DNA of 64,000 bases from a virus (IMGVR_UViG_3300048592_000564:8345-72344); one strand, 5' to 3'; shown: positions 21,547 to 39,194, counted from the stretch's first letter. A program made the numbers and translations. Notes: generated by a model not told the origin, from the letters alone.

Positions 21547-21719
21547 GCGAAGCACAGCGAATTTATCTCACGATCTACATGGGAGCAATCAGTGGATGGC
21601 TGGCCAATAAGTGGGCCAACCAAGGCGACCAAACAGCCGAGATGGCGCACAAAATCGCGGACGAGGTCGCAAAGCGCGGCACCATCGCGGTCGTGGACAT
21701 CGCAAAGGACGACGAATGA
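21543..21719 (+). CDS. Small hypothetical protein (58 aa, not in the ORF track)
   Basis: ATGA overlaps at both ends. Begins MSEAQRIYLTIYMG. Confidence 0.5.
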   Translation: MSEAQRIYLTIYMGAISGWLANKWANQGDQTAEMAHKIADEVAKRGTIAVVDIAKDDE

Positions 21720-25203: not shown

Positions 25204-25204
25204 G

Positions 25205-25831
25205 ATGCCAATCCCTAATCAGGTCCGGAACGATAACAGCGACGGATTGCGAGAATCCGACGTGACACTCGTGGTCTTCGCCCCGCCCCGCAGCGGCAGC
25301 ACCTGGGTGGGACAAATCTGCGGTGACGTGCTGGGCCACGGGGTCGTGAACACCCACACGTGGCTGGACCTTCCTGGCGTGCCGGTCCTGGCCGTGATCC
25401 GGGACCCACGGGATTGCGTGATCTCCCACTGGCGATTCCGCTGGCCCCAGGAGGTCGAGCAGTACGGCACGATTCCCCGCGAGCGGGCCGTGAACCTCGC
25501 GGCGTTCTACGGCCAGGAGTTCCTGATCCTGGAACGGTGGAACCAAACCAACGAGCCCGTGGTGCTCCACTACGAAAAGCTCCGGCGCTGGCCCACGCTG
25601 GTGTTCGACGCCCTGGAGTCAATGCTTGGCCTGCCCACAAAGAAACGCGACCGACGCCGCATCCTGGCCGCCCGGTCGCTCCGGTCCAATCGCCGCGCCC
25701 TGGAGCCAGGCCACGTCCACGAGGGCCGGGTCGGGACTTGGAAGCAATTCGTCAACCAGGACTCGGCCCGGTTGCTCACTTGGTTGCTGGGGCCGATCTG
25801 CCGGCACTACGGATACAAGGAGGCGAGATGA
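25205..25831 (+). CDS. Sulfotransferase-domain protein
   Basis: PRSGSTW (5'-PSB loop), RDPRDCVIS (3'-PB), YEKL, GRVGTWK. Confidence 0.8.
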   Translation: MPIPNQVRNDNSDGLRESDVTLVVFAPPRSGSTWVGQICGDVLGHGVVNTHTWLDLPGVPVLAVIRDPRDCVISHWRFRWPQEVEQYGTIPRERAVNLAAFYGQEFLILERWNQTNEPVVLHYEKLRRWPTLVFDALESMLGLPTKKRDRRRILAARSLRSNRRALEPGHVHEGRVGTWKQFVNQDSARLLTWLLGPICRHYGYKEAR

Positions 25832-26496
25832 TTCCCAAGCAGGTTCCACTACGCGTTGACCTGGGGGGTGGGTGGCTTGACTGCGCAAGATTCTCCCGCC
25901 CCGGCGCCTACGTGGTGAACCTCGCGATCCAGCCGCTGGTCTCGCTGGACCACTGGCCCTACCGCCGTGGCAGCGGCCTCGGGGGATCGGCGGCCCACGC
26001 GATTTTGAATGGCCTGGACCCGTTCGCGTCCGAGGGCGCGCTCGGGGTCGGGTGGCAGGACCCGGCGGTGATCCTCGAAACTGGCCTTTGCGTTTGGCGC
26101 TCCGGCCCGGCGCCGGTCCTGGAACTGAAGCGCAACCCCGATTTTCTCGCCGGCCACTTGGGCCTGCTCTGGACCGGCCAGGACCACCACACACCCAGCA
26201 ACGTGGACCGGGAGCGTGATTACAACGTGATCGAGGACGCGGGCCACGAAGCAGCCGCGGGAGCGGCGCAGCGATGGTATCCAGGAATCCTGAAGGCCAT
26301 TCGCTGGAGCTACCAGGCTCAGAAACGCGAAGGCATGGACACCCTGCCGGGCATCCAGGAAGCCCTGGCGTGGAAGTATTGCGGGGGCGGCTGGGGCGGC
26401 TACGCGCTATACTGCTTCGCCACCAGGGAGCACCGGGACGCCAGTGGCCTGATCCCGATTGAACCGTACCTCCGACCCGCAGGTGAGCCGACATGA
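25828..26496 (+). CDS. Compact GHMP-family sugar kinase (fucokinase/HddA-like)
   Basis: PLRVDLGGGWLD, GSGLGGS, GWQD, KYCGGGWGGY. Confidence 0.75.
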   Translation: MIPKQVPLRVDLGGGWLDCARFSRPGAYVVNLAIQPLVSLDHWPYRRGSGLGGSAAHAILNGLDPFASEGALGVGWQDPAVILETGLCVWRSGPAPVLELKRNPDFLAGHLGLLWTGQDHHTPSNVDRERDYNVIEDAGHEAAAGAAQRWYPGILKAIRWSYQAQKREGMDTLPGIQEALAWKYCGGGWGGYALYCFATREHRDASGLIPIEPYLRPAGEPT

Positions 26497-26750
26497 CCAC
26501 GCCCAAGATCGACAGCCTGGAGGCAATGGAACGATTTATGGACGCCGTCCAGAAGGACTATCGGCTATTCGCCCATCCGGACACGATCCAGCAAATGAGC
26601 GACATGCCCGCCACCCGCGACTTTGCGTCCAGGTTTGAAGCGAATCGCCACCTCGAGCCCGGCGACCTGATCGCGATCGATCCCGCGGTCTGGACGTTTA
26701 CTAAGCCGCCACTTACCATCGCGCCAGGAGCCACCAATGGGCGTGTTTGA
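26493..26750 (+). CDS. Hypothetical protein
   Basis: ATGA-coupled, 85 aa. Confidence 0.5.
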   Translation: MTTPKIDSLEAMERFMDAVQKDYRLFAHPDTIQQMSDMPATRDFASRFEANRHLEPGDLIAIDPAVWTFTKPPLTIAPGATNGRV

Positions 26751-27099
26751 TTACGTGACCTGCCGCTACGAGCTCCCGCCTGAGTTCCCCCGGGACCTTG
26801 AATGGCAAAGCAAGAGCACCCCGGCCCAGTACCTGGACCACTACGAGATCCGCGAGGATGGGTCACTGTGGCACGAAACCTATGTCCATCGGGTCGAGAC
26901 TCAATCAGATGGCTATTTCAACGTGCAGATGTATCGCGACAACCCGGAGTGGAAACGCGAGGACTTCACTGGCGAGCTGGAGATCCACAGTAGCGACGAC
27001 CGGCACTGGTACACGGTCCAGTTCTGGTTCCGCGACGGCGTCGTGAAGGATTTTGTGGCCAACGCCACCCCGTTACACAAAAAGGAGTGTGTCACATGA
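26737..27099 (+). CDS. Hypothetical phage protein
   Basis: MGVFDYVTC...WQSK...F.DG pattern. AGGAG RBS. Confidence 0.65.
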   Translation: MGVFDYVTCRYELPPEFPRDLEWQSKSTPAQYLDHYEIREDGSLWHETYVHRVETQSDGYFNVQMYRDNPEWKREDFTGELEIHSSDDRHWYTVQFWFRDGVVKDFVANATPLHKKECVT

Positions 27100-28055
27100 A
27101 GGTACTGGTCACCGGAGCCGCAGGCTATATCGGGAGTGCCGTTTGCTGGAAACTCCTGGAACACGGCCACGAGGTCGTGGCGCTCGACAACCTCAAGTAC
27201 GGGACCGCCGACTCCGTGCCGCCCGGCGTGCCGCTGATCCGCCGCGACCTCGCGAGCCCCCAGGATCAACTCGCGATCGTGTACGCGCTAGAGAGCAACC
27301 AGATCGAGGCCGTGGCCCACCTCGCGGCCGAGAGCCTGATTCCCCTTTCGTTCGAGCAGCCCGAGCTATTCTGGCGGGTCAATGTCACCGGTGGGTTGAT
27401 GTTGCTCGACGCCATGCGGCGCGCGGGCGTGCGGCGAATCCTCTACAGTTCCACGAGCTCCGTCTATGCCGAGCACCAGCCGATGCCGCTCACGGAGCAG
27501 AGCCCGATCGGGCCCAGCAGTTGCTACGGTGCGTCGAAATATGCGTTCGAGGATGCCCTGCGGTGGATGCGTAATTTGTCGTGGGTGGCGTTCCGGTACT
27601 TCAATGTCTGCGGCGCGACCGAGCACGTAACGGAAAAGCCGTACCATAGAAGCCGTTTAGTTCCAGTGGCCCTGGACGTCGCCTATGGCCGAGTCCCAGG
27701 GCCAATGCCGCTCAATGGAATCGACTACCAGGAAACGCGGGACCACACATGCTTGCGTGATTACATTCACGTCGACGATATCGCTCAGGCTCACGTCGCG
27801 GCCCTGGAGCACCCCGGTGCCACGGGTGTGTTCAATCTCGGGATTGGACGAGGATACACCAATCGAGAAGTCATCGAGGCCGTTCGCCGAGTAGCAGGCA
27901 AGCCAGTTCCAGTCGTCGAAAAGCCGCGCCGCCCAGGAGACCCAGCCATGCTGGTTGCTGACGCTTCAAAGGCAGGCCGTGAACTGGACTGGGGCCCGGC
28001 CTACACCACCATTGAGCAAATGATTGAAACGTGCTGCAAATACGAACAGTTGTGA
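27096..28055 (+). CDS. galE: UDP-glucose 4-epimerase
   Basis: TGAAGYIGS, YGASK, RYFNVCGA, RDYIHVDD, RRPGDP. Confidence 0.93.
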   Translation: MKVLVTGAAGYIGSAVCWKLLEHGHEVVALDNLKYGTADSVPPGVPLIRRDLASPQDQLAIVYALESNQIEAVAHLAAESLIPLSFEQPELFWRVNVTGGLMLLDAMRRAGVRRILYSSTSSVYAEHQPMPLTEQSPIGPSSCYGASKYAFEDALRWMRNLSWVAFRYFNVCGATEHVTEKPYHRSRLVPVALDVAYGRVPGPMPLNGIDYQETRDHTCLRDYIHVDDIAQAHVAALEHPGATGVFNLGIGRGYTNREVIEAVRRVAGKPVPVVEKPRRPGDPAMLVADASKAGRELDWGPAYTTIEQMIETCCKYEQL

Positions 28056-28064
28056 TTTTGTCCA

Positions 28065-28161
28065 TTGAACTCGTGCTTTCAAAACGCTAAAATGCGAACG
28101 GCCCGAGCGTCGTTACCGCCCGAGCCGTTCTAACCACTTCAACCTGCAAGGAGGTTTCATC
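28065..28161 (+). promoter_or_regulatory. HNH cassette leader, copy 1 (promoter + hairpin + conserved tail + RBS)
   Basis: TTGAAC-17-TAAAAT, gc, GAACGGC...GCCGTTC, TAACCACTTCAAC, AAGGAGG. Confidence 0.75.
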
Positions 28162-29115
28162 GTGGCTCAAACATATTCTAGCGATCCGAGGCGTCCAGCG
28201 AAAGGCCAAATTGGTGACAGGTTTGGTCACTGGAAACTCATTGGCTTTGAAAGATGCGTCAAGCGAAACAAGCTCATGTATTTGTGCAAATGTGACTGCG
28301 GAACCGTTCGGGCACTGCAACCCGGCGCGCTGTTTGGATGTACCAGTACGTCGTGCGGGTGCCATAGAACCGCGATTCCGCCAGCACCTCCGCTGCCCAC
28401 TGTCGATTCCGTAGAGTTCAGGACGCTCGAGCAATATCCTGGATATGCGTTTGGAAGCGACGGGTCGGTTTGGGGTTGCAGGGCAAGAGTGGTGGGGCGT
28501 GAACGCGGAAGGTGGACCAAGATAAATGGAGCCAAGGACAAAAACGGGTATCTTCGCGTGACAATCACGACGAGGTCCAGTTCCAAGACTCTCAAAATTC
28601 ATGCCCTCATCCTTGAGGCGTTTACCGGCCCAAGGCCGCAGGGTTGTGTAAGCCGCCACCTGGACGGAAACCAAGCAAATAACGCAATAGCCAATTTGGC
28701 GTGGGGAACTCCCGCAGAAAACCAACGGGACTCTATATTGCATCGCACGCACGCAGGGCTGCGAAACAGCGGACGCGACAACCCAAATGCCAAGTTGTCG
28801 TTTAGTGACGTGGCTGAGATCATGCGACTAAAGCACGAGATGCCTTGTCGGGACATCGCGAAACGATTTGACGTAACCGAAGGTGCCATCAAGTCCATAT
28901 TCTCAGGCCGAACATGGTCGCACCTCACTGGAGCTGACGAAGAGTCCCAGACAATGAACCAACATGTGCGCGAATGGATTTCCTCGATCATGCAGTCTCC
29001 GCTTGGCATTGATTCAATCGCCTCCGCCCTGGATGAACTTGGGTATCGCTTAGCCGAAAAATGCACAGGCCGACATTTCGACGAACCAAATCAAACCGCC
29101 CAGGCATGCTTATGA
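28162..29115 (+). CDS. Free-standing HNH homing endonuclease
   Basis: CKCDCG/SCGC domain, HALILEAFTGPRP..RHLDGNQANN..NLAWGT..EN, C-terminal HTH. Composition less GC-biased than the flanks. Confidence 0.9.
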   Translation: MAQTYSSDPRRPAKGQIGDRFGHWKLIGFERCVKRNKLMYLCKCDCGTVRALQPGALFGCTSTSCGCHRTAIPPAPPLPTVDSVEFRTLEQYPGYAFGSDGSVWGCRARVVGRERGRWTKINGAKDKNGYLRVTITTRSSSKTLKIHALILEAFTGPRPQGCVSRHLDGNQANNAIANLAWGTPAENQRDSILHRTHAGLRNSGRDNPNAKLSFSDVAEIMRLKHEMPCRDIAKRFDVTEGAIKSIFSGRTWSHLTGADEESQTMNQHVREWISSIMQSPLGIDSIASALDELGYRLAEKCTGRHFDEPNQTAQACL

Positions 29116-29154
29116 CCGATGGCCCCATGACCTTCAAGTGGACGCCACCAAAGT

Positions 29155-29220
29155 CCCCGCTACACTTCCCTGGAGCAAATGATTGAGTCCTGCTGGAAGT
29201 GGGAGCCGAAGTCTCAATAA
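29155..29220 (+). pseudogene. galE: Orphaned duplicate of the galE 3' end
   Basis: Reads PRYTSLEQMIESCWKWEPKSQ* versus the galE end PAYTTIEQMIETCCKYEQL*. Shared 14-mer gagcaaatgattga at 28014-28027 and 29173-29186. Confidence 0.75.
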
Positions 29221-29236
29221 CCGAAGGAAAGTATCT

Positions 29237-29614
29237 ATGTTGAATCGACGCACCCTACTAGGCGGCCTTGCTGCCATTGCTTCTGGAGTTTGGTGTCAAG
29301 CAAAAACACTCGCCGCCCAGCGACACGATGGCGATGGTTCGACCATCTCTCCAGGCCAGCCCACCTGCCGAACTGCCTGGGTGTCCAGTGGACGCAAGCT
29401 GGATTTCGAGCGGTTTCATCGCGAATTTTCTATGGCGAGCTATCAGGGCCACAGGGTCGTGAACGCAATCAGCGTCTCCGATCGCAAGGGACGGACCGAA
29501 TGGTATATCTGCCTGTCCGACGACACGGCCGAGAATCCCTACGATGAGATGCCGGCCAGGTTTGCGGGCCTCTTGTGCGAGGAAGCCAAGCGTCGACAGG
29601 AGCCCGCCGCATGA
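29237..29614 (+). CDS. Hypothetical protein with a Tat-like N-terminus
   Basis: MLNRRTLLGGLAAIA twin-arginine-like motif. Confidence 0.5.
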   Translation: MLNRRTLLGGLAAIASGVWCQAKTLAAQRHDGDGSTISPGQPTCRTAWVSSGRKLDFERFHREFSMASYQGHRVVNAISVSDRKGRTEWYICLSDDTAENPYDEMPARFAGLLCEEAKRRQEPAA

Positions 29615-29768
29615 AAGCGTTTTGGTGGTGGTTTTGGACAATCAGTTCATTTCTGTACGCGATATTCTGGCTTCACGCTGCCGCGACTCGCAATACCGAC
29701 CACATGATGTCCTGTTTTGCAGCAGTGATCGCCTGCGGCGCGATGACCCGAACCTACGAGGAGAAGCC

Positions 29769-30149
29769 ATGCACGCCTACCGCCCCGTGATTGACCGCTG
29801 CTGGATTGAACGCGAGAACGGCCACCAGCGCGACTACATCGACGCCATCGTGGCCCGCTACAACCAGCTGACGCTCGACCCCGACCGCAAAGAGCGAATG
29901 GCCGCCCAGCAGTGCGTGGTCTGCTGGAAGACCAGCCGGATTGGCGGCGCGGCCTGCACCCAGAGGCAGTGTGGACTTTGCGACACCACGCTCCACAGCG
30001 GTAGCACTAACATTGACGTATTGTGCCCTGAGTGCGCGCGACGTGCCAAACTGTGCCGGCACTGCGGGGCCGACTTGGAGCTGAAGAACCGACGCACCCG
30101 AGACATGCCGGAGCGAACGCCCGATATCAAGGAGGACGAGGAGTGCTAG
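29769..30149 (+). CDS. Cys-rich (Zn-finger-like) protein
   Basis: Four CxxC pairs. Confidence 0.6.
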   Translation: MHAYRPVIDRCWIERENGHQRDYIDAIVARYNQLTLDPDRKERMAAQQCVVCWKTSRIGGAACTQRQCGLCDTTLHSGSTNIDVLCPECARRAKLCRHCGADLELKNRRTRDMPERTPDIKEDEEC

Positions 30150-30535
30150 TTTGCCGAATCGAAATCTGGCCCCACGGATCATACGCCCGTCGGCGCACCC
30201 TCGGGACGCTCGTGATCGCGAACGACGGGACGGGCACCCAGGAGATCGGGCACTACGACTGCGCGGTCGCGCACGCGGGACCGTATGCGGGAAAACCGGG
30301 GGCATGGCGAGGCGGTCGAGTGATCGGACACCTGCGGAAGCTCTCGCCCTATCACCTTGTGCGTGAAGCCCTGGCGGCGTGCCTGGAGGGGCGGCGTAGC
30401 AAGCGGGCCGACGGTCTGATCCAGCAGGTTCGCGACGCCGAGAGCGCCAAGCCGATGATTGCGTTCGACAGCGCGGAAGAAATGCGAAAATTCACCGAGG
30501 GGTTCGCATACCGGCCCCAGGAGCAAGGATTATGA
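30143..30535 (+). CDS. Hypothetical phage protein
   Basis: LV.RIEIWPHG...IANDGTG...G.Y pattern. GGAGG RBS, GTG start. Confidence 0.55.
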   Translation: MLVCRIEIWPHGSYARRRTLGTLVIANDGTGTQEIGHYDCAVAHAGPYAGKPGAWRGGRVIGHLRKLSPYHLVREALAACLEGRRSKRADGLIQQVRDAESAKPMIAFDSAEEMRKFTEGFAYRPQEQGL

Positions 30536-30770
30536 AGCTCGTCATCCAAGAACAAAAAACCAACGGCGTGGTGGCGAAATCCAGCACGACCACAACCTAC
30601 CAGCCGGACGACGAACTTCGAGAGGTTGTCCATTATCTCGTGCGATGTCTCCAGAGCCTCACCCTGACGGCCGAACGTATCGTCAAGGTGATCGAACGCG
30701 AAACCAAGGGCGATTAGTCAAGGACGACCCAAAGGCCCAGGGATGGGCCACTTTTTGGAAATTTTGCATG

Positions 30771-30864
30771 TGGATCTGTCCACTGAAAGTCTGTACAATG
30801 CGAACGGCCGCTGGGGTGTCGCCCAACGGCCGTTCTGACCACCATCAACTTCAAGGAGTATCAG
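30771..30864 (+). promoter_or_regulatory. HNH cassette leader, copy 2
   Basis: TACAAT (30794-30799), gc, GAACGGCCG...CGGCCGTTC, TGACCACCATCAAC, AAGGAG. Preceded by a ggccc/gggcc hairpin with a T-run. Confidence 0.7.
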
Positions 30865-31830
30865 ATGGCTAGCACCAATCCTAGCACGCGCAGCCCAAGA
30901 TTCAAGGATGAAACAGGAAAACGATACGGGCGATGGCTTGTTGTGTCTCACGTCGGTGGCGAATATTGCCAGTGCAAATGCGACTGCGGAACCGTTAAAG
31001 ACGTGCTTCTTGCGGCGATACGCAAGGGCCAGTCAAAGAGCTGTGGATGCGCCCGCTATGACAACCTTCCAGATTTGACAGGCGCAGTCGTCGGCAAATG
31101 GACGGTTCTGGCGATGTGCGAAAAGTCCTCACCGAATGACGCACGCCGTTGGCTATGTAAATGCGTGTGCGGCACAGAGAAGTCGGTGCGCGACGAATCA
31201 CTGCGAAACGGAGAATCTACATCTTGTCGATGCGAACAAAAGAATGCTCATCCGAGGCTGTCCACAACCGACCAGTGCCCAATATTTCCAGTCAGCGAAT
31301 CGGCAATAATCAAGCATTGCCCAGGGTATCTCGGCTATGCCGTCAGCGATCACGGGGATTTGTTCAGCTGTAGAAATAGAAACGGTTTCGCTGGGGCAGC
31401 AAAGCAATGGAGGCAATTGACGCGTCTCGGGTCCGACAAGGACGGCTATCGACGGACAGTGTTTACGATTGACGGCAAACCGCATTACGTTAGACGCTGT
31501 GTTTTAGTGTTAGAGGCATTTATTGGGCCACGTCCAGAAGGAATGATGGTGAGACACCTTGACGGGCATAACACCAATGATCGCTTGGACAATCTGGCCT
31601 GGGGTACTGCATCAGAAAACCAGCAAGATGCTGTCAGGCACGGAACGCAATCAGGACTAAAGGTGCGCGGTGAATCCACGCCTAACCATAAGATCACCGA
31701 GGCCGATGTTATCGAAATACGACGCTTGGCAGGAACCATGCCCCAGAGGGCAATTGGCGAACTAGTCGGATTAACCCAAACCACGGTTGGTCAAATAATC
31801 AGGAGACAGGCATGGAAGCATGTCGCGTAA
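30865..31830 (+). CDS. Free-standing HNH homing endonuclease
   Basis: Two CKC(D/V)CG domains, LVLEAFIGPRP..VRHLDGHNTND..NLAWGT..EN, HTH tail. Overlaps the start of the downstream kinase. Confidence 0.9.
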   Translation: MASTNPSTRSPRFKDETGKRYGRWLVVSHVGGEYCQCKCDCGTVKDVLLAAIRKGQSKSCGCARYDNLPDLTGAVVGKWTVLAMCEKSSPNDARRWLCKCVCGTEKSVRDESLRNGESTSCRCEQKNAHPRLSTTDQCPIFPVSESAIIKHCPGYLGYAVSDHGDLFSCRNRNGFAGAAKQWRQLTRLGSDKDGYRRTVFTIDGKPHYVRRCVLVLEAFIGPRPEGMMVRHLDGHNTNDRLDNLAWGTASENQQDAVRHGTQSGLKVRGESTPNHKITEADVIEIRRLAGTMPQRAIGELVGLTQTTVGQIIRRQAWKHVA

Positions 31831-32729
31831 TCAAATCCCAGGCACCCTGTAGGATTTCCATCTGCGGCGGTTCGAGCGACCTGTCCTACCACTGGAGGCG
31901 ACATCGTGGCTTTTTGGTCACGGCCGCGATCGATAAATACGTGACCGTCACGGTGCAGCCGGGAAATCGAATTGACACATCGCCCCAGCACCCATACGCG
32001 ACCGCAGCAGGCTGGAGTTCACGCGATCTGGTCACCATCGAAAGTGACCTGCTTCCTGGAAGTGGGCTGGGCGGAAGTTCGTGTCTTATGACTGCACTCC
32101 TGCGCGCCCGCCATTCTGACCTTCCGGTTCACGAGCTTGCGATGGCGGCCTACCACGCCGAAAGGTTTGGTCAAATCGCAGCCCCAATTGGGTACCAGGA
32201 CGGCTTCGCGGCAGCGTTCGGCGGTTGCATTGCCCTGGAGATCGACCACGCGGGCCGGGTCGCAACATGGCCCGTCGCGCTCCCCGCCGACTTCGAGCGC
32301 CGCCTTGTCCTGATGAACACTGGGGTTCAGCGCCCAGCCGCCGACGTGCTAAGGAAGCAAGAGGCGGCGACCAGCACGTCACTGGTAAGCCGGGAAGCGA
32401 TGGAGTCGATAGCCAATCTTGGCCACGAAATCTACGCCGATATTCGCGACAACCAAGGCCAGAATTTCGGCCCCATGCTTGATCGTCACTGGAAATACAA
32501 ACGAGCAGTTGCTAGTGTGATGTCAAATCCAGCGATCGACGCATGGTACGACCTCGCCCTGGATCACGGTGCCACCGGAGGAAAACTGATTGGCGCAGGG
32601 AGCTCCGGCTTCTTTTTGTTTGTCGTCCCGCCCGACCGTCGCTACCATTTTGTCGACACCATGACGGCCGCGGGCCTGACGGAGCTTCCGTTCCAGTTTA
32701 CCGACCAGGGGGCGAGGATTATCAAATGA
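31812..32729 (+). CDS. hddA: GHMP kinase, D-glycero-alpha-D-manno-heptose-7-phosphate kinase-like
   Basis: APCRISICGGSSD, PGSGLGGSS, GYQD..AAFGG, HWKYK, GGKLIGAGSSGF. Confidence 0.8.
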   Translation: MEACRVIKSQAPCRISICGGSSDLSYHWRRHRGFLVTAAIDKYVTVTVQPGNRIDTSPQHPYATAAGWSSRDLVTIESDLLPGSGLGGSSCLMTALLRARHSDLPVHELAMAAYHAERFGQIAAPIGYQDGFAAAFGGCIALEIDHAGRVATWPVALPADFERRLVLMNTGVQRPAADVLRKQEAATSTSLVSREAMESIANLGHEIYADIRDNQGQNFGPMLDRHWKYKRAVASVMSNPAIDAWYDLALDHGATGGKLIGAGSSGFFLFVVPPDRRYHFVDTMTAAGLTELPFQFTDQGARIIK

Positions 32730-33320
32730 ACGACCTCATCGAAGCGCTGACGATCCTCCTGAAATACGGGAATCCCCGAAATCCGACGCACTGCGAGCAC
32801 GACCAGCTCACGATCGCGGAAATCGACCCGAACGACGTCTCGCCAGAGGACCGGGCCAGGCTCTACGAACTCGGGTTTTTAGTGTCCGAGGCCGACGAGT
32901 GCTTTATGTCATTTCGATACGGGAGTGCGTGATGACACCCGAGCAAGCCATTGAACTGATCGAGAGAACCCTTGTGGAGCAGAAGCTAGCTCTACAGGCG
33001 TGGCACGACGCTTGGCTAATGCAGGGCGAGGGCCGCGTGCTCGCGATGGTGGAGGCCCACCGGAAGACCTGCCGGGCACTGGGGATGGAGGAGAACACGT
33101 GAGCGCCGAATTTTTCGCCGTCCAGGAACAAGATCGCTCACGGCTAGACCGCGCGACCAAGACTACCTACGTGAACCTGGACGCGATCCTGTACGTCGAC
33201 GACTACGGGGTTCGAGGCGAGCCCATGCGGGTGTCGTGCGTCGGAAAGGAAACCTACTGGCTTGTAAACGACGACGCCGAACGGCTCGTCGCAAAGCTGA
33301 AGGAACGGTGCAAGTCATGA
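32726..33320 (+). other. Three coupled small hypothetical CDSs (32726-32932, 32932-33102, 33099-33320)
   Basis: Start/stop overlaps with RBS-like purine runs. Confidence 0.5.
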
Positions 33321-33913
33321 GCCCAACTACCAACCTCCTGGACTGCTGCGTGCGGTCCATCCAAGGGCTCGACCACGAGCAGATCGACGACGCAGCCAGA
33401 ATACTCTCCCGCGTTAGACGCGAACGCGGTCGGCTATTTCTCGCCGGCTCAGGCGGCGGGGCCGCGCACGCCTCGCACGCCTGCTGCGATTTCAGAAAAC
33501 TTTGCGGCATCGAGGCATACTGTGTCTCGGACAACGCCGCCGAATTGACGGCCCGCGTCAACGACGACGGCTGGGAATCCAGTTATGCGAACTGGCTTCG
33601 GGTGCCCCGGCTTGATCGCAACGACGCCCTACTGATCGTGAGCGTCGGAGGAGGATCCACGCACCCACCGGTATCCACGAACCTCGTGACCGCAATGGAG
33701 TTCGCTCGATCGCTCGGGGCCGCTACCCTGGCCGTGGTTGGCCGTGATGGAGGACACGCGGGCCGGGTGGCCGATGTCGCGGTCCTGATCCCGTGCGATC
33801 GGCCGGAATTCGTGACGCCGGTCACGGAGGCGGTCCAGAGCGTAGTGCTCCACGCCCTCGCGGTCCATCCCCTGTTGGCAATCCTGAAGGCGAAATGGGA
33901 GGGACTTGTATGA
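33317..33913 (+). CDS. gmhA: SIS-domain phosphoheptose isomerase
   Basis: GSGGGAAHASH..D, TARVNDDGW, SVGGG, VGRDGG, TEAVQSVVLH. Confidence 0.85.
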   Translation: MSPTTNLLDCCVRSIQGLDHEQIDDAARILSRVRRERGRLFLAGSGGGAAHASHACCDFRKLCGIEAYCVSDNAAELTARVNDDGWESSYANWLRVPRLDRNDALLIVSVGGGSTHPPVSTNLVTAMEFARSLGAATLAVVGRDGGHAGRVADVAVLIPCDRPEFVTPVTEAVQSVVLHALAVHPLLAILKAKWEGLV

Positions 33914-34073
33914 ACGCGAGGACGTTGCGGTTTGCGATGAGCTTCATTACCGGATCACTGACAGGAGTTGCCATTGCGGAACTCAATCGCGGCCATCTCG
34001 CGACCGCAATTGGATTGACGCTTGCCGTTGCTGTGTCGGTGTTTTTCCGCTGCCTAACGATCGAGCATTCGCC

Positions 34074-34400
34074 ATGAACCCCTACGAACAATGCTTCCAT
34101 GACCTCGGGATCGAGTCCCCCACGATTGAAGACCGCCGGGCCCTGCGCCGTCTGGTCGCCACCGTGGCGCCCGACGTCCGGACGGTCGAGCGAGCCCGCC
34201 TCGAGGCGTCCACGCAGCGTCGACGGTGCCGCGAGGACGACGCCAGGGTCGACGTGTTGCGAGACGCCATCGAGGCCGTGCTGGCGCTACCGCGTGTCCC
34301 GGGCACGATTGAACGCAGGCTCCAGGCCGCGATGGACGCGACCGCCTACGACGGCCGGACCGTGCAAGAGATCGTCCGCGCCGCCGGGGAGGTGACGTGA
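34074..34400 (+). CDS. Hypothetical protein
   Basis: ATGA-coupled to a small membrane ORF at 33910-34077. Confidence 0.5.
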   Translation: MNPYEQCFHDLGIESPTIEDRRALRRLVATVAPDVRTVERARLEASTQRRRCREDDARVDVLRDAIEAVLALPRVPGTIERRLQAAMDATAYDGRTVQEIVRAAGEVT

Positions 34401-34492
34401 CGAGCAGATTTTTGTTGTTTTGTCGCCATGACGTGGCTACCATCCTGCAGGAACGCTACGCATCTACGCGGTTGGGATTGAAAGCAAGTCAC

Positions 34493-35404
34493 ATGGGACC
34501 CAAGAGAATTAAGCCGCATACCAAAATAGTTGATGTTCGCCGCGAACCAGACAAAATCCTTCCCGTGTCGTGGATCAGCCTTGCTGAATCAACCGCCCAT
34601 GAACTTGCGTATCGCTTTGGCATGTCCTACGAGCACGTTATCTCGATTTCAAATGCAATCAAAGACGGAATGGCTCACGTGTATCCGTCTCTAAATGGAA
34701 TATCCAGAATCGACGCAGGCAAACAGCACACGTGGTTTGCCCGAATCCATCGCGGCGCAGTGTCCGGCAGTCACACCGCAGCCAAGTCGTTCGCCGACAG
34801 CCGATGCGGTGGGCGAGAAAAGGCCCTTCAGGCAGCAAGGCAGTGGCGAGACGACACGCTGGCTACGATAGTAATCGCAACACCAAAGGAACACGCCTGT
34901 GTAAAAACGACCAATCGGCAGCGGCGCGAAACTATGGAGAAGCAATTGCAGGTGCATGGCAAGTGCTACATGCGAACCGGAACCGGCTTACTGGCAAGCA
35001 AGCGAGCCGCGATTGAGTTTGGCCAGCACGGCAAGACCTGTGCGGCGATTCGCGATGGTGCTCAGGACGGCTTCTACCTTGGCGGCAACCGGCCGCGTTA
35101 CGCCGTCGCCGGCTTCATGAATGAAATCACGCCCAGGATTGAAAAGCAGATCCGACGAGAAATCAGGAGACGAGCCAGGCACTGGATGTCCAGCGAGGAC
35201 ATTGAACTGGCGGCGAGCAACGCTATGATGTCCTGGGCGTCAATCGACCTGTCTAGCGTATCGGAAGACTATATTGAACGACTGGCAGGAAGCGTGGTCA
35301 GGACCGCCGACCGAAGACGCTCGGCAGAACGAAAAAAACAGGGGGTATCGCTTGATCTTAATGGCGAGATCGAAACCCTAGAGCGACAAAGAGAACGATG
35401 GTAG
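34493..35404 (+). CDS. AP2-domain DNA-binding protein
   Basis: GISRID...WFARI...KSFAD...GGREKALQAARQWRD AP2-like motif. Lower GC. Start chosen downstream of a TACCAT -10-like site. Confidence 0.6.
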   Translation: MGPKRIKPHTKIVDVRREPDKILPVSWISLAESTAHELAYRFGMSYEHVISISNAIKDGMAHVYPSLNGISRIDAGKQHTWFARIHRGAVSGSHTAAKSFADSRCGGREKALQAARQWRDDTLATIVIATPKEHACVKTTNRQRRETMEKQLQVHGKCYMRTGTGLLASKRAAIEFGQHGKTCAAIRDGAQDGFYLGGNRPRYAVAGFMNEITPRIEKQIRREIRRRARHWMSSEDIELAASNAMMSWASIDLSSVSEDYIERLAGSVVRTADRRRSAERKKQGVSLDLNGEIETLERQRERW

Positions 35405-35625
35405 CAACGGGCCATTTGCCGCGCATTCTTGTTGAGTGCTCGGTGTCCTCTTCAGCTTTCTGGCTGACCGCGGGGGGACGGCATATATGGAAGCGTCACC
35501 GCCATCTGGCCCATTGCTACCTCGACAGCAAATTAAGACAACGCCCCGGTTCACCCAGTCGCCGAGGTGGACCTTCCATTTGAATCCGACCCAACCGGCG
35601 GCTTGGGTGCAACCGATGGTTCGCC

Positions 35626-36221
35626 ATGACGTTCGCGTGCTATTGGGATCGCCTCCGGGCCGCAACACCCGGCCTGAGCAACGACGAGACCTCGATGCGG
35701 ATCAGCGTCTTGAACTTCCGGCTCGCGATCAGCCGAGCCTACGCGGCCGGACGTGACGAGGCCCGGCAGCACATCGAGCGAACCGCCGACGAACTCACGG
35801 GCGACCAGGGCATCATGGACGTGTTCAAGGGGATTTTCGGGGACAAGCGATGACAAGATTTGAAAAGTTACTCGCGTACCTGCTCAAGTACCATTTTACC
35901 TACGACGAACTGGAAAAAATCGTCGACCTCAAACTGGAATGCGAGCACTATAGCGACATCGAGAGAGTCGTGTTTCCTGAATTGTCCCCAGCGGTCAATA
36001 AGCTATTGGCCCGGATGGGATGGGACGAAAAGCCGTACATTGAACGACTTCTTGATGAGCAAAGGCTCTATATGCAGGCGATCCATCAAGACGAACTGGC
36101 AGAACGGCAGGCCCTTATCGAACGCATGCACACGCAATGCCATTCGGTTCGCAACCTTGCTAGCATGCGCGACGCCGCCCAAAGGTTTTTGCGTGACACC
36201 GAGGACTGTAAGGTCTCATGA
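35626..36221 (+). other. Two coupled hypothetical CDSs (35626-35853, 35850-36221)
   Basis: ATGA overlaps. Confidence 0.5.
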
Positions 36222-36715
36222 ATCAGGCATGCTTTTTCGATCTCGACGGAACTTTGGTCCGCGCTTTCCCCGAGGGCGACACCACCCGTGGACCACGGAC
36301 CCGCGATGAGGTTGAAATCCTGCCGGGCACCAAAGAGTCGCTCGACCGACTATTCGACGCAGGCTACGCGTTGCTTGTGGTCACGAACCAGCCGGGACTT
36401 GCCCGCGGCGACCTCGACCCATTGGAACACGCGGGCGTTCGGCTGATGATCCGCGTGGAACTGCCGGTTCGCAAAATCTATACTTGCCCGCACGACGGCG
36501 ACTGGTGCGCATGCAGGAAGCCGCGGCCGGGGCTCATCATCGGAGCCGCGGTCGAATACGAACTCGACCTCGCCCGCTGCTGGATGATCGGCGACCGGGA
36601 GTCGGACCGTGAGGCCGCGATCCGGGCCGGGATCCCGCAGGCCCAGACGATCAAGCTCGAAACCAACCAAGGCATCAAGGAGGCGGTGGACGCAATCCTT
36701 GCCTTTGCAAAATGA
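36218..36715 (+). CDS. gmhB: HAD-IIIA heptose-1,7-bisphosphate phosphatase
   Basis: FDLDGT, VTNQPG, CPH..C.CRKPRPG, MIGDRESD. Confidence 0.88.
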   Translation: MNQACFFDLDGTLVRAFPEGDTTRGPRTRDEVEILPGTKESLDRLFDAGYALLVVTNQPGLARGDLDPLEHAGVRLMIRVELPVRKIYTCPHDGDWCACRKPRPGLIIGAAVEYELDLARCWMIGDRESDREAAIRAGIPQAQTIKLETNQGIKEAVDAILAFAK

Positions 36716-36727
36716 CCGTTTTTATAC

Positions 36728-36821
36728 TTGAACGACCGTACAGTAATCGGTAACATGCGAACGGCCCGGACGTTGGAGCGCCCGAGCCGTTCTAACCACC
36801 ATCAGCTGTAGGGAGCGTCAA
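36728..36821 (+). promoter_or_regulatory. HNH cassette leader, copy 3
   Basis: TTGAAC-17-TAACAT, gc, GAACGGC...GCCGTTC, TAACCACCATCAGC, GGGAG. Confidence 0.75.
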
Positions 36822-37412
36822 GTGGCTTCGATAAATTGTATCATGGACTGCCCGCCGTTGCCAGTTGTAGAAGGTGTTGAAATTCGGCACTGCGAAGGAT
36901 ATCCAGGGTACGCCATTGGCAGCGATGGCTCCCCGTGGTCGTGCCGGCCGTGCGTCCGAACTGGGCTCAAAATAGCATGGAGGCGACTTACGCCATGCCC
37001 AGACAAACAAGGCTACCTGCACATCAGTTGCCAGGTGAACGGGCGGCTGATTCGCCCCAAAATAGGCCACCTTGTAGCCAACGCATTCATCGGGCCAAAT
37101 CCAGGAAAGCTGGATTTGTGTCACGGGGACGGCAATAAGCAGAACAACCGCGTCGAAAACCTGCGGTGGGGGACTCGCAGCGAGAACACGCAGGACGCAT
37201 TACGGCACGGCACGTTTCACATTGTTGGGCATCCAGGGGAACGTAACGCAAACTCCAAAATTACCGCATCGCAGGTCAAGGAAATTCGCAGCACCCCAGG
37301 GAAAAGCCACGTCGAATGGGCGCGCGAACTTGGCGTTACCCCAACGGCAATTTATTCAATTCGCGCAGGAAGGACATGGAAGAATGAACCAAGCCCTCGA
37401 CATAACGATTGA
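36822..37412 (+). CDS. Free-standing HNH homing endonuclease
   Basis: YPGYAIGSDG, HLVANAFIGP..CHGDGNKQNNRVENLRWGT..EN, HTH tail. Overlaps the transaldolase start. Confidence 0.9.
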   Translation: MASINCIMDCPPLPVVEGVEIRHCEGYPGYAIGSDGSPWSCRPCVRTGLKIAWRRLTPCPDKQGYLHISCQVNGRLIRPKIGHLVANAFIGPNPGKLDLCHGDGNKQNNRVENLRWGTRSENTQDALRHGTFHIVGHPGERNANSKITASQVKEIRSTPGKSHVEWARELGVTPTAIYSIRAGRTWKNEPSPRHND

Positions 37413-38115
37413 CGTGTTTTGCGACTCCGCCGACCTCACGATCATGCACGGAATCGTGGAGCAGTACCCCTATGTGCGAGGCTGGACCACCAACCCTTCG
37501 ATCTGCCGACGCTGTGGGGTCGTGGACTACAAGGGCTTTATCGTGGACGCGCTCACGAAGCTGCCACCGCTCCCCTTGTCCGTCGAGGTTGTGGCCGACG
37601 AGCCACGCGAGATTGATAAGCAGGCCCGCTACCTGGAACGCTTGGCTCGCTTGCACGGTCGGCGAGATACGCTGTATGTCAAGGTCCCAGCCGTGAACTC
37701 GCGCGGCATTTCGCTCGCGCCATTGATGCGAGAACTTGCCCAGGATGGCGTGCAGATCAACGCCACGGCGGTGCTGTCCTACGAGAGCGCCGAACTGGTT
37801 ACCGACGCCCTGTCGGGCGGTCCCGCCTCTTGGGTCTCGGTCTTTGTCGGGAGACTGGCCGACCGAGGCACTGAACCACTGGACGAAATGCCGCGATATG
37901 TGAAGCGGATCAACGAAGCGACCCGCACAATCTGGGCCAGTCCCCGAGAACCGCTAAACGTGCTTCAAGCGCAACGCCTCGGCTTCGACGCTATCACGGT
38001 GTTTCACGACTTCATCAAAAAGCTCCACCTGTTCGGCAAGGACTTGCGTGAGTTTGAGATTGAGACGAGCCGTATGTTCTTGCAGGATTCCATTTCGGCG
38101 GGGTACCAGATATGA
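37384..38115 (+). CDS. tal: Transaldolase (TalC/FSA-like)
   Basis: FCDSAD, GWTTNPS, YVKVP (Schiff-base Lys), INATAV, SVFVGRLAD, WASPRE. Confidence 0.88.
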   Translation: MNQALDITIDVFCDSADLTIMHGIVEQYPYVRGWTTNPSICRRCGVVDYKGFIVDALTKLPPLPLSVEVVADEPREIDKQARYLERLARLHGRRDTLYVKVPAVNSRGISLAPLMRELAQDGVQINATAVLSYESAELVTDALSGGPASWVSVFVGRLADRGTEPLDEMPRYVKRINEATRTIWASPREPLNVLQAQRLGFDAITVFHDFIKKLHLFGKDLREFEIETSRMFLQDSISAGYQI

Positions 38116-38332
38116 CAAACCGCCCCCTTCAATACGGCCGATGGAACATCCGATGCCGACTGACCGTTGACTGCCTGCGCCGAACCTACGACCGCGACCC
38201 CGGCTGGAGACTACTCAGCATCGGGATATTCCGGCTCGCGCCCATGATCCCCGTTGGCGATGATCCCCGTTACCACGTCGAGCGGGGCTTCTGGTGGGAA
38301 ATCGACATCTGGCTCCCGTGGAGGATTCGCTC

Positions 38333-38620
38333 GTGAAAATCGCCCTCGACTTCGACGACACCCTGACGGCCGACCCGAGGCTCTGGGCCGTGTTCGTAAA
38401 TGCCGCCCGCAGCCGCGGCCACGAGGTCTGGCTCGTGACCGCCCGACGGGACACCGAGGAGAACCGCCAGATCATCGAGGCATGGCTCGACCACTGGGGC
38501 CACAATCTCCCGGTCCTGTTTACCAATCTCGGCAGCAAACTCGCGGCCGTGGAGCGGCAGGGCATCAAGATCGACATCTGGATCGATGACGACCCCGCGA
38601 GCCTTGTAAACGGACGCTGA
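38333..38620 (+). CDS. Small HAD-like protein
   Basis: IALDFDDT, VTAR, K, WIDD. Confidence 0.7.
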   Translation: MKIALDFDDTLTADPRLWAVFVNAARSRGHEVWLVTARRDTEENRQIIEAWLDHWGHNLPVLFTNLGSKLAAVERQGIKIDIWIDDDPASLVNGR

Positions 38621-38621
38621 A

Positions 38622-39194
38622 ATGAAACTTGGCCTGCACGCATCAGCTTTCGACCCGATCCACCCAGGCTATCTGTACGCGTGGCATCAGGCCCTGGACG
38701 CCGGGGCGTGCGACGGCATCGTGGCCGCGATCCATGCAGACCCAAGTACCGAAAGGTCAGAGAAACGCCGCCCGGCCATGACGGTCAAGGAACGAATCGC
38801 GATCCTGGAGCAATTCCGCGTCGTCCAGACGGTCTGCGTCTACGTCGACGAACGGCAGTTGTACGAGATGATCAGGAGCACCCGTCCCGCGTGCCTGATC
38901 ATAGGCGAAGACCACGAGTTCGACCGCGTGACCGGCGCCGACCTCGCGCCAGTGTTTTGGGCCAAACGCAATCCCGAGTGGTCCGGTACCCAGATCGCGA
39001 GACGCATTGCCGCCAGTTTGCCCGACGTGGCCGCGAGCCTACGATTCACCGAAGGACTCGACCCCGAGGTCATGGCCCGCTATCCTGCCCAGGACCTCCT
39101 GAGCATCCACGCGATCTTCAAGTCCATCGGGGACGCGTTCGACCGCCACCTGGCCGACCGCGCGGCCCGTGGATGCGAGCCCGGCCAGATGTAA
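38622..39194 (+). CDS. Cytidylyltransferase-family nucleotidyltransferase (TagD/RfaE domain II-like)
   Basis: SAFDPIHPGY (variant HxGH), KRRPAMTVKER, IIGED. Confidence 0.75.
   Translation: MKLGLHASAFDPIHPGYLYAWHQALDAGACDGIVAAIHADPSTERSEKRRPAMTVKERIAILEQFRVVQTVCVYVDERQLYEMIRSTRPACLIIGEDHEFDRVTGADLAPVFWAKRNPEWSGTQIARRIAASLPDVAASLRFTEGLDPEVMARYPAQDLLSIHAIFKSIGDAFDRHLADRAARGCEPGQM

Follow-up and report, generated by a model that had tools for sequence, protein, structure and literature searches.

Predicted antisense RNA modules distantly related to SymR and RepX precede three HNH_3 homing-endonuclease genes in a phage contig

Homing-endonuclease genes encode selfish nucleases that need low expression. 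In phage T4, the controls described for such genes are promoter choice, autorepression and hairpins at the ribosome-binding site (RBS) (PMC2988022). Elsewhere, two small antisense RNAs act at the 5′ end of their target genes. RepX, an antisense RNA of 75 nt, lies across the repA RBS and start codon; besides its two stem-loops it has a GUUA spacer and ends in a short 3′ tail (PMC8136791). SymR is encoded antisense to the 5′ end of its target, symE, across both the RBS and the start codon, and mutation of the SymR promoter leads to seven-fold more SymE protein (PMC4147584). Here we describe a module in a phage contig that is best classed as a distant relative of this known SymR/RepX kind, rather than as an undescribed kind.

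The window that we analysed is a 64,000-nt stretch (IMGVR_UViG_3300048592_000564:8345-72344) of a 72,344-bp phage contig. A block of ~85 nt precedes the HNH_3 genes at 28162, 30865 and 36822, and no other copy is present in the contig. The pattern GCGAACGGCC-N(10-40)-GCCGTTCTRACCAC has exactly three matches in the window, all on the plus strand (28094-28137, 30800-30842 and 36757-36799), and none in 100 dinucleotide shuffles. One base 5′ of the block lies TAAAAT, TACAAT or TAACAT (copies 1, 2 and 3, respectively), with TTGAAC 17 nt upstream of this sense -10 in copies 1 and 3; on its 3′ side, each copy is followed by a Shine-Dalgarno (SD) sequence and then RTGGCT (GTGGCT, ATGGCT and GTGGCT at the three gene starts). 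The interiors of the hairpins diverge among the three copies, with pairing retained. A preliminary description of the window had pointed to this shared promoter-hairpin-RBS-RTGGCT architecture and to the diverged but still pairing interiors, and both observations are confirmed.

All three downstream ORFs match PF13392 (HNH_3; E 3e-11 to 2e-10; 41.6, 40.9 and 43.3 bits against a cut-off of 24.8) as well as phrog_59. They are the only HNH_3 matches in the whole contig, and 3/3 carry the block. Three PF01844-type HNH matches elsewhere in the contig, one of them above the cut-off, all lack it, in agreement with the earlier remark that other HNH-like ORFs are without the leader. The neighbours, too, are as described, the cassettes abutting or overlapping conserved enzyme genes (galE-like, GHMP kinase, HAD phosphatase and TAL_FSA; Table 1).

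Table 1. Positions of observed and predicted features at the three cassettes, numbered from the first nucleotide of the window.
Feature	Position	Strand	Details
Epimerase gene (galE-like)	ends 28055		upstream of cassette 1
Sense promoter-like site 1	28065..28093	+	TTGAAC-17-TAAAAT; consensus scan, 9/12 matches
Predicted antisense RNA 1	28086..28167	-	R2 match 65.3 bits, E 4.8e-16
Antisense RNA 1, predicted start	28167	-	A opposite the T of GTGGCT
Antisense RNA 1, predicted stem-loop I and spacer		-	stem-loop I over SD and start codon, then spacer UGGUUAGA
Antisense RNA 1, predicted stem-loop II and tail	complement of 28096-28130	-	tail GCAUUUUA
Putative antisense -10 box 1	28175..28180	-	TAGAAT; 7 nt 5′ of AGCCAC, in codons 5-7 of HNH1
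HNH1 ORF	28162..29115	+	317 aa, GTG start; PF13392 E 9e-11; phrog_59 E 1.5e-31
Degenerate, frameshifted copy of galE 3′ end	29095..29221	+	behind HNH1; three-frame translations; blastn 23/27 identities to 28000-28026
Predicted antisense RNA 2	30792..30870	-	R2 match 59.4 bits, E 1.8e-14; fold -37.1 kcal/mol, z -4.1
Antisense RNA 2, predicted stem-loop II	complement of 30802-30835	-	
Putative antisense extended -10 box 2	30878..30886	-	TGcTAGGAT; 7 nt 5′ of AGCCAT
TTGAAT hexamer		-	16 nt upstream of cassette 2 antisense -10; read by eye
HNH2 ORF	30865..31830	+	321 aa; 3′ end overlaps GHMP-kinase ORF starting 31812
HAD phosphatase gene	36218-36715		upstream of cassette 3
Sense promoter-like site 3	36728..36756	+	TTGAAC-17-TAACAT; read from sequence, under consensus-scan threshold
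Predicted antisense RNA 3	36749..36827	-	R2 match 56.1 bits, E 1.5e-13; fold -38.2 kcal/mol, z -4.1
Antisense RNA 3, predicted stem-loop II	complement of 36759-36792	-	
Putative antisense promoter 3	36835..36864	-	CTGGCA-18-(TGa)TACAAT; within first 14 codons of HNH3; consensus scan 9/12, TG before -10
HNH3 ORF	36822..37412	+	196 aa, GTG start; 3′ end overlaps TAL_FSA gene
TAL_FSA gene	37384-38115		overlapped by HNH3 3′ end

Folding pointed to the strand opposite the HNH genes. Of 47 family members, 46 have their better fold on the minus strand (mean -40.9 versus -30.3 kcal/mol; Wilcoxon p 3e-9), and across these 47 members stem-loop II contains 81 G.U pairs when read in the antisense direction versus 13 in the sense direction, the plus strand having C.A mismatches at such positions. 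For the window copies, the antisense folds have z-scores of about -4 and were equalled by 0/200 shuffles; at cassette 1 the two antisense stem-loops reach -40.8 kcal/mol (z -4.0), as against just -27.7 for the sense leader. These folds consist of two stem-loops and a spacer, (U)GGUYAGA, and span 69-72 nt to the end of stem-loop II, plus a tail. At the foot of stem-loop I is the helix AGCCAY:GUGGUU, with the anti-SD sequence higher up; stem-loop II has 14 bp, is rich in G+C and leads into a tail containing U. What had been described as a leader hairpin corresponds to the terminator stem-loop of the predicted antisense RNA; the conserved leader ends are the stem-loop II base, the UGGUYAGA spacer and the predicted 5′ end, and the variable interior is the predicted upper stems and loops. 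RTGGCT pairs with TAACCAC to close the predicted stem-loop I at its base.

U-rich tails are present in many viral members, and the sense -10 hexamer of cassette 1 doubles as the template for the U-rich tail of antisense RNA 1. In copies 2 and 3 the tails (GCAUUGUA and GCAUGUUA) have few U residues and are weak as intrinsic terminators. A terminator scan reported none of the three antisense terminators.

An alignment of 70 sequences in the antisense direction supported both helices by covariation. In stem-loop II, 11 of 12 pairs show changes on both sides, and the covariation score was 0.584 versus 0.175 in shuffled alignments (0/500 reach 0.584), falling to 0.15 or less with the partners slid. 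In the AGCCA:UGGUU helix, one pair is G.U in 67/70 sequences and compensatory changes from CG to UA, AU or GU occur in 6. Most family samples were picked by exact window patterns and many members are interrelated, and conservation of the patterned blocks themselves is partly circular. The earlier proposal that the structure is under selection stands, with the amendment that the selected strand is the opposite one.

These data bear on the most obvious alternative, that the HNH mRNA is controlled in cis by a 5′-UTR hairpin behind a sense promoter, which would either stabilise the 5′ end or, in the manner of T4 I-TevI, segB and mobE, sequester the RBS and AUG. We consider this improbable. RBS-sequestering hairpins are known at T4 homing-endonuclease genes (PMC2988022), and sigma-70-like sense promoters lie immediately 5′ of the hairpin in copies 1 and 3, as do extended -10 boxes at the sense site in many viral members. 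The sense RNA also folds: by our own reading, CCAC pairs with GUGG/AUGG and the SD lies in a small hairpin in ~42/47 members, with a terminal helix of at least 4 bp in 37/47 (shuffles, mean 26%, maximum 43%). The sense structure is nevertheless consistently worse, with a C.A mismatch where the antisense has G.U, and the second sense hairpin is weak in the window (-5.7 to -9.1 kcal/mol, z -0.3 to -1.4). A sense leader would also leave unexplained both a conserved -10 box within the coding region and the kinship with SymR and RepX described below. A sense hairpin may well coexist with the antisense RNA, since the target mRNA must carry the mirror image of the antisense structure. The T4 elements resemble the window's in combining a homing endonuclease held low with RNA structure at the RBS and a promoter beside or inside the hairpin, but they are purely cis-acting sense structures, and antisense RNA is unmentioned in the parts of the review that treat them (PMC2988022), whereas in the window the better structure and promoter are on the other strand.

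Putative antisense promoters were found at a fixed place. In 3/3 window copies, the antisense -10 boxes (TAGAAT, TGcTAGGAT and TGaTACAAT) lie 7 nt before AGCCAY. Among 46 unique family members, a sample ascertained by the hairpin base and linker only, TANNNT occurs 6-7 nt 5′ of AGCCAY in 31, of which 11 have the TG extension; 14 of the remaining 15 show NAnAAT at the same place, as read from a printed list. Sliding the same window over the coding region as a control gave 0-3/46 (mean 0.6). A consensus scanner independently called the minus-strand promoter of cassette 3 (36864-36835); infection by this phage may use promoters other than the host's sigma-70-type ones. The cassette 1 antisense promoter is without a good -35 and without a TG extension. 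Within HNH codons 5-7, the putative -10 box is placed for an RNA of ~75-80 nt starting from the A opposite the T of RTGGCT. Taken with the folds and the excess of antisense G.U pairs, this argues against the sense-strand leader or operator of the preliminary description, and the element is best read as a separate antisense RNA gene. Among the three functions offered there, an RNA limiting toxic expression comes nearest to the evidence, and an operator is not supported.

We found links to both SymR and RepX through related modules. The Rfam symR model (RF01809) matches the antisense strand of three viral modules before SymE_toxin genes, which share the linker, start-codon and -10 pattern of the window (54.8, 48.6 and 44.1 bits against a gathering threshold of 61). 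RF00043 (R1162/RepX region), which our own comparison with IncQ loci showed to model the mRNA-sense strand, matches a divergent Variovorax member (28 bits against 55; E 0.0048 in 301 nt), and a model built from phage and island leaders (R1) matches the IncQ repA leader (23.8 bits, E 5e-4). No window copy or related module tested reaches the gathering threshold of RF01809 or RF00043; the Rfam library gave no match at E 1 in window positions 26000-39000, and RF00043 none at E 10 in the whole contig. A match to an already described family, which had been named as a possible outcome, is thus half borne out: relatives match RF01809 and RF00043, and the window copies do not. Their placing as distant relatives of SymR and RepX rests on these intermediates and on a common architecture.

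That architecture is shared in some detail. Like the predicted RNAs, SymR is encoded over the RBS and start codon of its target (PMC4147584), which is a toxic, nuclease-like protein, and its Rfam consensus has the same plan, AGUCAU, stem-loop I, UGUGAUUAG, stem-loop II and tail. RepX, also antisense to an RBS and start codon, has the same two stem-loops, with its GUUA spacer and short tail (PMC8136791), and the IncQ loci read CGGCGC...GCGCC-TAACCA-hairpin-ATGGCTACC, with an antisense TGaTAGGCT 7 nt 5′ of AGCCAT. The targets differ: phage HNH_3 homing endonucleases in the window, SOS-induced SymE for SymR, and a replication helicase and plasmid copy number for RepX. Unlike in SymR, the sense promoter in the window adjoins the terminator hairpin. 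RepX is bound by FinO, whereas no FinO/ProQ domain (PF04352) matched in the 72-kb contig, a record estimated to be 56% complete. Homology to two experimentally demonstrated RNAs, the fixed-distance -10 box and the U-rich tails of many viral members all indicate transcription, which makes it very improbable that the selected structure is instead a minus-strand single-stranded DNA hairpin serving as a priming or replication signal or a hairpin promoter, even though G.T wobbles are tolerated in DNA hairpins and strand asymmetry alone cannot separate RNA from single-stranded DNA.

We think it likely that each HNH_3 homing-endonuclease gene carries a compact sense/antisense module of the SymR/RepX type that represses HNH translation. 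On the model of SymR/symE and RepX/repA, each antisense RNA would pair with its own HNH mRNA over the entire 5′ UTR, SD and start codon, blocking translation and holding a potentially toxic nuclease at a low level. The convergent sense promoter, whose -10 would double as the antisense terminator tail, may add transcriptional interference, and differing loops could restrict each of the three RNAs to the cassette that encodes it. The module and ORF would move together as a single mobile cassette.

Two observations support the earlier suggestion of a family of mobile HNH cassettes. The galE 3′ remnant behind HNH1 suggests that cassette 1, together with a replacement galE end, is an insertion. L067, a fragment of a related phage, has the block and an HNH gene as one insertion unit between two genes, and this unit begins, with the block, where the upstream gene has its stop codon; the equivalent flanking genes abut (TGATG) in the window at 24463, their 33-39% amino acid identity marking L067 as a distant relative. 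A search for close relatives of the window's own three cassettes found none.

Since the block is the 5′ boundary of the L067 unit, and conserved inverted-repeat ends surround variable DNA, we also considered an element acting as DNA: an operator for a dimeric regulator or the HNH protein, or a recombination hot spot that shuffles cassettes between phages in the manner of PeSLs, conserved promoter/terminator motifs for modular exchange in T4-like phages (PMC4122927). Double-stranded DNA sites are blind to G.U versus C.A, yet the asymmetry is strong, and in divergent members the stem base is swapped for unrelated sequence with pairing kept, which speaks against a fixed protein-binding sequence; we regard a DNA-level element as distinctly improbable. 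PeSLs likewise are repeated promoter-plus-hairpin motifs that border variable genes as candidate exchange points (PMC4122927), but they are sense-strand terminator/promoter composites of T4-like myoviruses, whereas the window structure is selected on the antisense strand. Identity with a PeSL cassette was rejected: the sense hairpin is followed by UCURACCAC, with no U-run, and none of the three sites received a plus-strand terminator call. The block may have a role in recombination as a by-product of the antisense module.

A broader interpretation, which we think possible but unlikely, is that one portable antisense "governor" cassette is common to RepX, SymR and integrative islands, and most of all to phage homing endonucleases, and that the homing-endonuclease cassettes are selfish modules resembling type I toxin-antitoxin systems. 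Its parts would be a sense -10/antisense terminator, the spacer, an SD hairpin, ATGGCT and an antisense promoter in the first eight codons. The stem base, spacer and tail would be where a FinO/ProQ-type chaperone docks, fast-evolving loops would make the RNAs private, so that three cassettes coexist in one genome without cross-talk, and the conserved ends would also serve as recombination points carrying the governor to new genes.

If the main reading, repression of HNH translation by a SymR/RepX-type antisense RNA, holds, two families that Rfam curates narrowly and separately, RF01809 for a chromosomal antitoxin and RF00043 for an IncQ copy-number RNA, would join one far wider family over plasmids, genomic islands and viruses. 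A large share of the free-standing HNH genes of environmental phages would use a built-in SymR/RepX-type antisense RNA, adding a different device to the described homing-endonuclease controls. The N-terminal "MAxx(D/N/H/Y)S" or "MAxxI(I/V)A" shared by unrelated proteins would be a promoter read in reverse, which bears on gene annotation. Three divergent copies in one genome would provide a test case for antisense RNA specificity.

The module is common in IMG/VR, with at least 119 stretches. Among 36 downstream proteins of a first sample, Pfam matches were to HNH_3 (8), HNH (1), HNH_5 (1) and Endonuclease_7 (1). Of 55 downstream ORFs in a viral sample, 33 fall into two HNH clusters of 21 and 12 members, whose identity (phrog_374 in 20 members, phrog_3377 in 13) was assigned via the member count and one checked member. 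Model R2 finds the module at 12/80 IMG/VR HNH_3 relatives, 9 of which were in its training set, always in the antisense direction and at the 5′ end. A sequence-free signature was present at 8/80 HNH ORFs versus 4/833 other ORFs (Fisher p 9e-7). The proposed linkage to HNH genes is therefore strong but not exclusive, as the module also occurs before genes for SymE toxin, RepA helicase, a recombinase and small proteins of unknown function.

The element of about 85 nt before the three HNH genes (HNH1, HNH2 and HNH3, with ORFs from 28162, 30865 and 36822; copies 1–3) had been put forward in the preliminary description as a shared promoter and hairpin leader. As a description of the sequence, this was accurate at every point we checked: a pattern scan recovered the three copies, each with a Shine-Dalgarno sequence and RTGGCT downstream, opening an HNH_3 ORF. 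The pattern was absent from 100 shuffles and had no further copy in the whole contig. These are the only HNH_3 genes in the contig, and the block is indeed missing from the other HNH-like ORFs, as its three PF01844-type HNH matches, one of them above cut-off, all lack it. Coordinates are collected in the table.

Features of the HNH cassettes and their surroundings (window positions unless a locus is named)
Feature	Position	Strand	Basis or remark
Block GCGAACGGCC...GCCGTTCTRACCAC, copy 1	28094-28137	+	pattern scan
Block, copy 2	30800-30842	+	pattern scan
Block, copy 3	36757-36799	+	pattern scan
Antisense -10 TAGAAT	28175-28180	minus	sequence reading
Antisense extended -10 TGcTAGGAT	30878-30886	minus	sequence reading
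Antisense extended -10 TGaTACAAT	36835-36843	minus	sequence reading
Decayed copy of galE 3' end	29095-29221		about 40 codons, one frameshift; directly behind HNH1
Terminator-like hairpin GGCCCAGGGATGGGCC then ACTTTTTGG	30734-30749	+	just 5' of cassette 2
Glycan-run genes: UDP-glucose dehydrogenase, two glycosyltransferases, sulfotransferase, epimerase, GHMP kinase, SIS isomerase, HAD phosphatase, TAL_FSA aldolase	19226-38115		encloses all three HNH cassettes
int-alpA RNA (RF02996)	L008 7042-7117		related locus
int-alpA RNA (RF02996)	L093 10975-11043		related locus
int-alpA RNA (RF02996)	L227 2967-3035		related locus

The structure under selection is best placed on the strand opposite to these leaders. 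The sense leaders of copies 1–3 fold moderately (-27.7, -31.7 and -29.2 kcal/mol), whereas their reverse complements reach -40.8, -37.1 and -38.2 kcal/mol, with z about -4. Every C.A mismatch in the sense hairpins is a G.U pair on the antisense strand, and G.U in place of a C.A mismatch is the classical mark of the strand that is transcribed and selected. We then compared both strands in a family set of 47 unique members, excluding rows without an RTGG start 12–50 nt downstream and ten doubtful ones; like most of our family samples it was gathered by exact sequence patterns, which is a weak point. All but one (46/47) fold better in the antisense direction, with a mean of -40.9 versus -30.3 kcal/mol for sense, and their long hairpins hold 81 G.U pairs on the antisense strand versus 13 on the sense strand. 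The fold that the comparison favors is that of a predicted minus-strand RNA of about 75–80 nt, made up of a stem-loop I that covers the start codon and Shine-Dalgarno sequence, a spacer, and a terminator-like stem-loop II.

A promoter for such an RNA can be read inside the HNH genes: in each, the first codons hold a minus-strand -10 box that precedes AGCCAY by 7 nt. For copy 3, a consensus scan independently reported CTGGCA-18-TACAAT with a TG extension (36864-36835, minus strand); the antisense -35 of copy 1 is weak. In a sample not ascertained on this feature, TANNNT stood at a spacing of 6–7 in 31 of 46 members, and by our reading of the printout 14 of the other 15 have NAnAAT at the same spot. 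A control window slid down the ORFs found a -10 box in only 0–3 of 46. The antisense promoter read backwards would also explain why unrelated downstream proteins start alike, with MAxxI(I/V)A or MAxx(D/N/H/Y)S.

Covariation, which the preliminary description had proposed as a check, was found in an antisense alignment of 70 sequences (window copies, viral modules, genomic-island copies, IncQ plasmids and SymE-linked copies). In stem-loop II, 11 of the 12 pairs show changes on both sides. Once the stem-loop I base helix was included (scored as AGCCA:UGGUU plus one pair), the covariation score was 0.584 versus 0.175 for shuffled alignments, a value reached by none of 500 shuffles, and slid partners gave at most 0.15. 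One pair of this base helix is G.U in 67 of the 70 rows and a mismatch in the mRNA, and rows with ACU, UCU or CCC as second codon carry matching changes in the linker. The covariation of the helix indicates that TAACCAC and RTGGCT are its two strands. We had considered the ACCAC block as a boxA/nut-like antitermination signal or, from its ACCA, as a tRNA-like minihelix, and dropped both because it pairs with the start-codon region. The interior of stem-loop I is too variable in length to align and was tested alignment-free: a terminal helix of 4 bp or more was present in 37 of 47 members, with 25 different helix sequences, against a shuffle control with a mean of 26% and a maximum of 43%. In our first, sense alignment, four variable hairpin pairs already covaried (0.243 versus 0.055, reached by 0 of 500 shuffles). 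The tails of copies 2 and 3 are U-poor, a further weak point. Some of the hairpin loops may resemble the SAS/ESAS of Cluster K mycobacteriophages.

Scanning for exact matches to the hairpin base and linker yielded 4 viral, 30 genomic and 69 metagenomic stretches; by our reading, about half of the genomic and metagenomic matches are chance occurrences within coding DNA, and the rest show the full architecture. Many members lie in Comamonadaceae chromosomes beside integrase genes and int-alpA RNAs, with eight matches in one Variovorax genome and five in one Hydrogenophaga genome. Divergent members keep the plan and have the stem sequence swapped outright, for example GAGCCUGCC/GGCAGGCUC in a second copy at locus L047 and GACGGCC/GGCCGUC in Variovorax, so the hairpin is conserved as structure and not as sequence. 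Variovorax (G003, loci L115-L125) and many other Comamonadaceae loci carry up to eight modules per chromosome, with a cargo of 80–110-aa proteins of unknown function that share the motif LLENKLxQLxSLLW. In Hydrogenophaga (G002 C1:5834149-5837558; loci L118, L120 and L122), three identical modules form a tandem repeat at 1.66 kb spacing, each before a small MAKSDVIANAL... ORF of slightly differing length. The int-alpA RNAs are about 1 kb or less from modules, both in integrative elements and in a virus; at L008 the order is integrase, weak module, strong module, int-alpA. A group II intron is close by as well.

We next asked what the modules precede. Among 36 downstream proteins of our first sample, Pfam assigned eight to HNH_3 and one each to HNH, HNH_5, Endonuclease_7, integrase, resolvase and HTH_3, leaving the rest without a family, and PHROG HNH families had up to eight members each. 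A viral scan with TAACCAC-N16-36-ATGGCT-N7-ATTCTA, a pattern that combines linker, start codon and the most frequent -10, matched at least 119 stretches, with 80 loci listed. Reading 66 unique sites among these listed matches, we accepted 61 as carrying the upstream hairpin and rejected 5 as false; 44 sites passed a strict automatic filter, and all 44 fold better antisense. When the 55 downstream ORFs from the listed matches that encode 80 aa or more were clustered with phmmer, two groups of 21 and 12 emerged, which are probably HNH proteins, as judged from member counts and one checked member. HNH tallies for the listed matches were phrog_374 20 and phrog_3377 13, with Pfam HNH_3 8, HNH 7 and HNH_5 7, and the other cargo among them included three SymE, two DUF2924, one GIY-YIG, one RadC, a five-member Cys-rich family and singletons. 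These Cys-rich proteins (81–97 aa; L250, L257, L262, L263 and L268) recur in viruses, have no Pfam match, and share C..C.(F/Y)(F/Y)...G.C(H/R)R(Y/F)P.

From the protein side, a pattern search for relatives of the window HNH_3 proteins gave 168 in IMG/VR, of which we kept the best 80. R1, a model built from phage and island leaders, found the block at 5 of these best 80. R2, a model of the antisense alignment, found it at 12, always on the opposite strand at the HNH 5' end (nine of these loci are in the R2 seed, and L147, L151 and L188 are outside it), plus one doubtful plus-strand match. A signature free of any conserved sequence was present at 8 of 80 HNH ORFs versus 4 of 833 other ORFs at the same loci (Fisher p 9e-7); it called for a correctly spaced antisense -10, a pair of antisense hairpins, and an advantage of 3 kcal/mol or more for the antisense over the sense fold. 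The proposed linkage to HNH genes is borne out as strong enrichment at homing-endonuclease genes, but not all such genes have the module, and it also precedes others.

Rfam at E 1 gave no match in window 26000-39000 to a riboswitch, ribozyme or other known cis-regulator, and at gathering scores its matches at 15 related loci were only tRNA, int-alpA and group II intron, all off the block. An N4-like hairpin promoter was set aside since there is no ORF for a giant virion RNA polymerase, the largest being 606 aa. In a lax Rfam scan, the R1162-like plasmid antisense RNA family (RF00043) matched a divergent Variovorax copy at 28 bits (gathering score 55; E 0.0048 in 301 nt). With a pattern drawn from the RF00043 consensus, hairpin-UAACCA-hairpin-AUGGCUAC, we collected IncQ loci, where the block lies directly 5' of a 279-aa RepA gene, the other strand reads TGaTAGGCT 7 nt before AGCCAT, and R1 matches at 23.8 bits (E 5e-4). 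Because the consensus reads into the repA start and the block precedes RepA in these loci, the RF00043 model represents the mRNA-sense strand, although the family is named as an antisense RNA.

In PMC8136791 and PMC9977716, RepX is a 75-nt antisense RNA that covers the RBS and start codon of repA-repC; it has two stem-loops with a GUUA spacer, ends in a short 3' tail, reduces copy number, and is both bound and stabilised by FinO. The former paper places FinO protection at the stem-loop II base and the tail, and describes conservation within IncQ-1 plasmids. On the antisense strand of the three SymE_toxin modules among the listed viral matches, Rfam symR (RF01809) scored 54.8, 48.6 and 44.1 bits (gathering score 61). 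According to PMC4147584, SymR overlaps the symE RBS and start codon, and mutating the symR promoter gave a seven-fold rise in SymE protein but hardly changed the mRNA; RNase III was not required. Neither RF01809 nor RF00043 matches the window copies (Rfam at E 1 in window 26000-39000; RF00043 at E 10 in the contig), and blastn for the E. coli symR locus gave no match. The module is like SymR and RepX in every architectural feature, whereas the window copies lie below the Rfam thresholds and membership of either curated family fails on score. R2 matches the window exactly three times, each time on the minus strand (E 5e-16 to 2e-13), as expected by construction with the window copies in its seed.

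These comparisons point to a minus-strand promoter, to a fold of two hairpins under selection on that strand, to a predicted RNA fully complementary to the 5' UTR, Shine-Dalgarno sequence and start codon, and, judged by sequence, to kinship with two experimentally proven antisense RNAs. Made from the minus-strand promoter, the RNA would block translation of its own HNH mRNA, by analogy with SymR and RepX on their targets. Predicted sense promoters abut the antisense unit in copy 1 (TTGAAC-17-TAAAAT) and copy 3 (TTGAAC-17-TAACAT); such a promoter would fire into the unit, and convergent transcription could then add interference. Given the FinO footprint on RepX, a chaperone may bind at the conserved stem base, spacer and tail; the 72-kb contig has no FinO/ProQ gene. 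The divergent loops would prevent cross-reaction among the three RNAs. Our literature searches turned up no report of phage homing-endonuclease genes being controlled by antisense RNA, and the part of PMC2988022 consulted names only promoter choice, autorepression and RBS hairpins as controls of T4 homing endonucleases. The kind of system is already known; its targets, viral setting and family breadth appear not to have been described previously.

A related fragment bears on how the cassettes move. The window genes 23906-24466 and 24463-25203 abut as TGATG, and in L067, a 2.6-kb fragment of a distantly related phage whose flanking proteins are 33–39% identical to those of the window, a module and a Zn-ribbon HNH gene stand between their homologues. 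This module begins at the upstream gene's stop codon, a TGA that supplies the TG of the extended sense -10, and the last 25 nt or so of its HNH ORF overlap the downstream gene, just as HNH2 and HNH3 run into the genes after them in the window. An intact galE end stands before cassette 1 and a decayed copy behind HNH1, so the cassette seems to have arrived with a replacement galE end. Empty alleles of the three window sites were not found: megablast against phages gave no match, and searches for related loci with the TAL protein and with HNH3 alone yielded no relative.

The window covers bases 8345-72344 of one 72,344-bp IMG/VR virus record (CheckV completeness estimate 56%), which had no megablast match among deposited phages and encodes a primase/helicase and many sugar genes. 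The long run of sugar-nucleotide and glycan genes around the cassettes resembles a gene set for modifying heptose or polysaccharide, and the terminator-like hairpin beside cassette 2 is probably the end of the preceding block of small ORFs.
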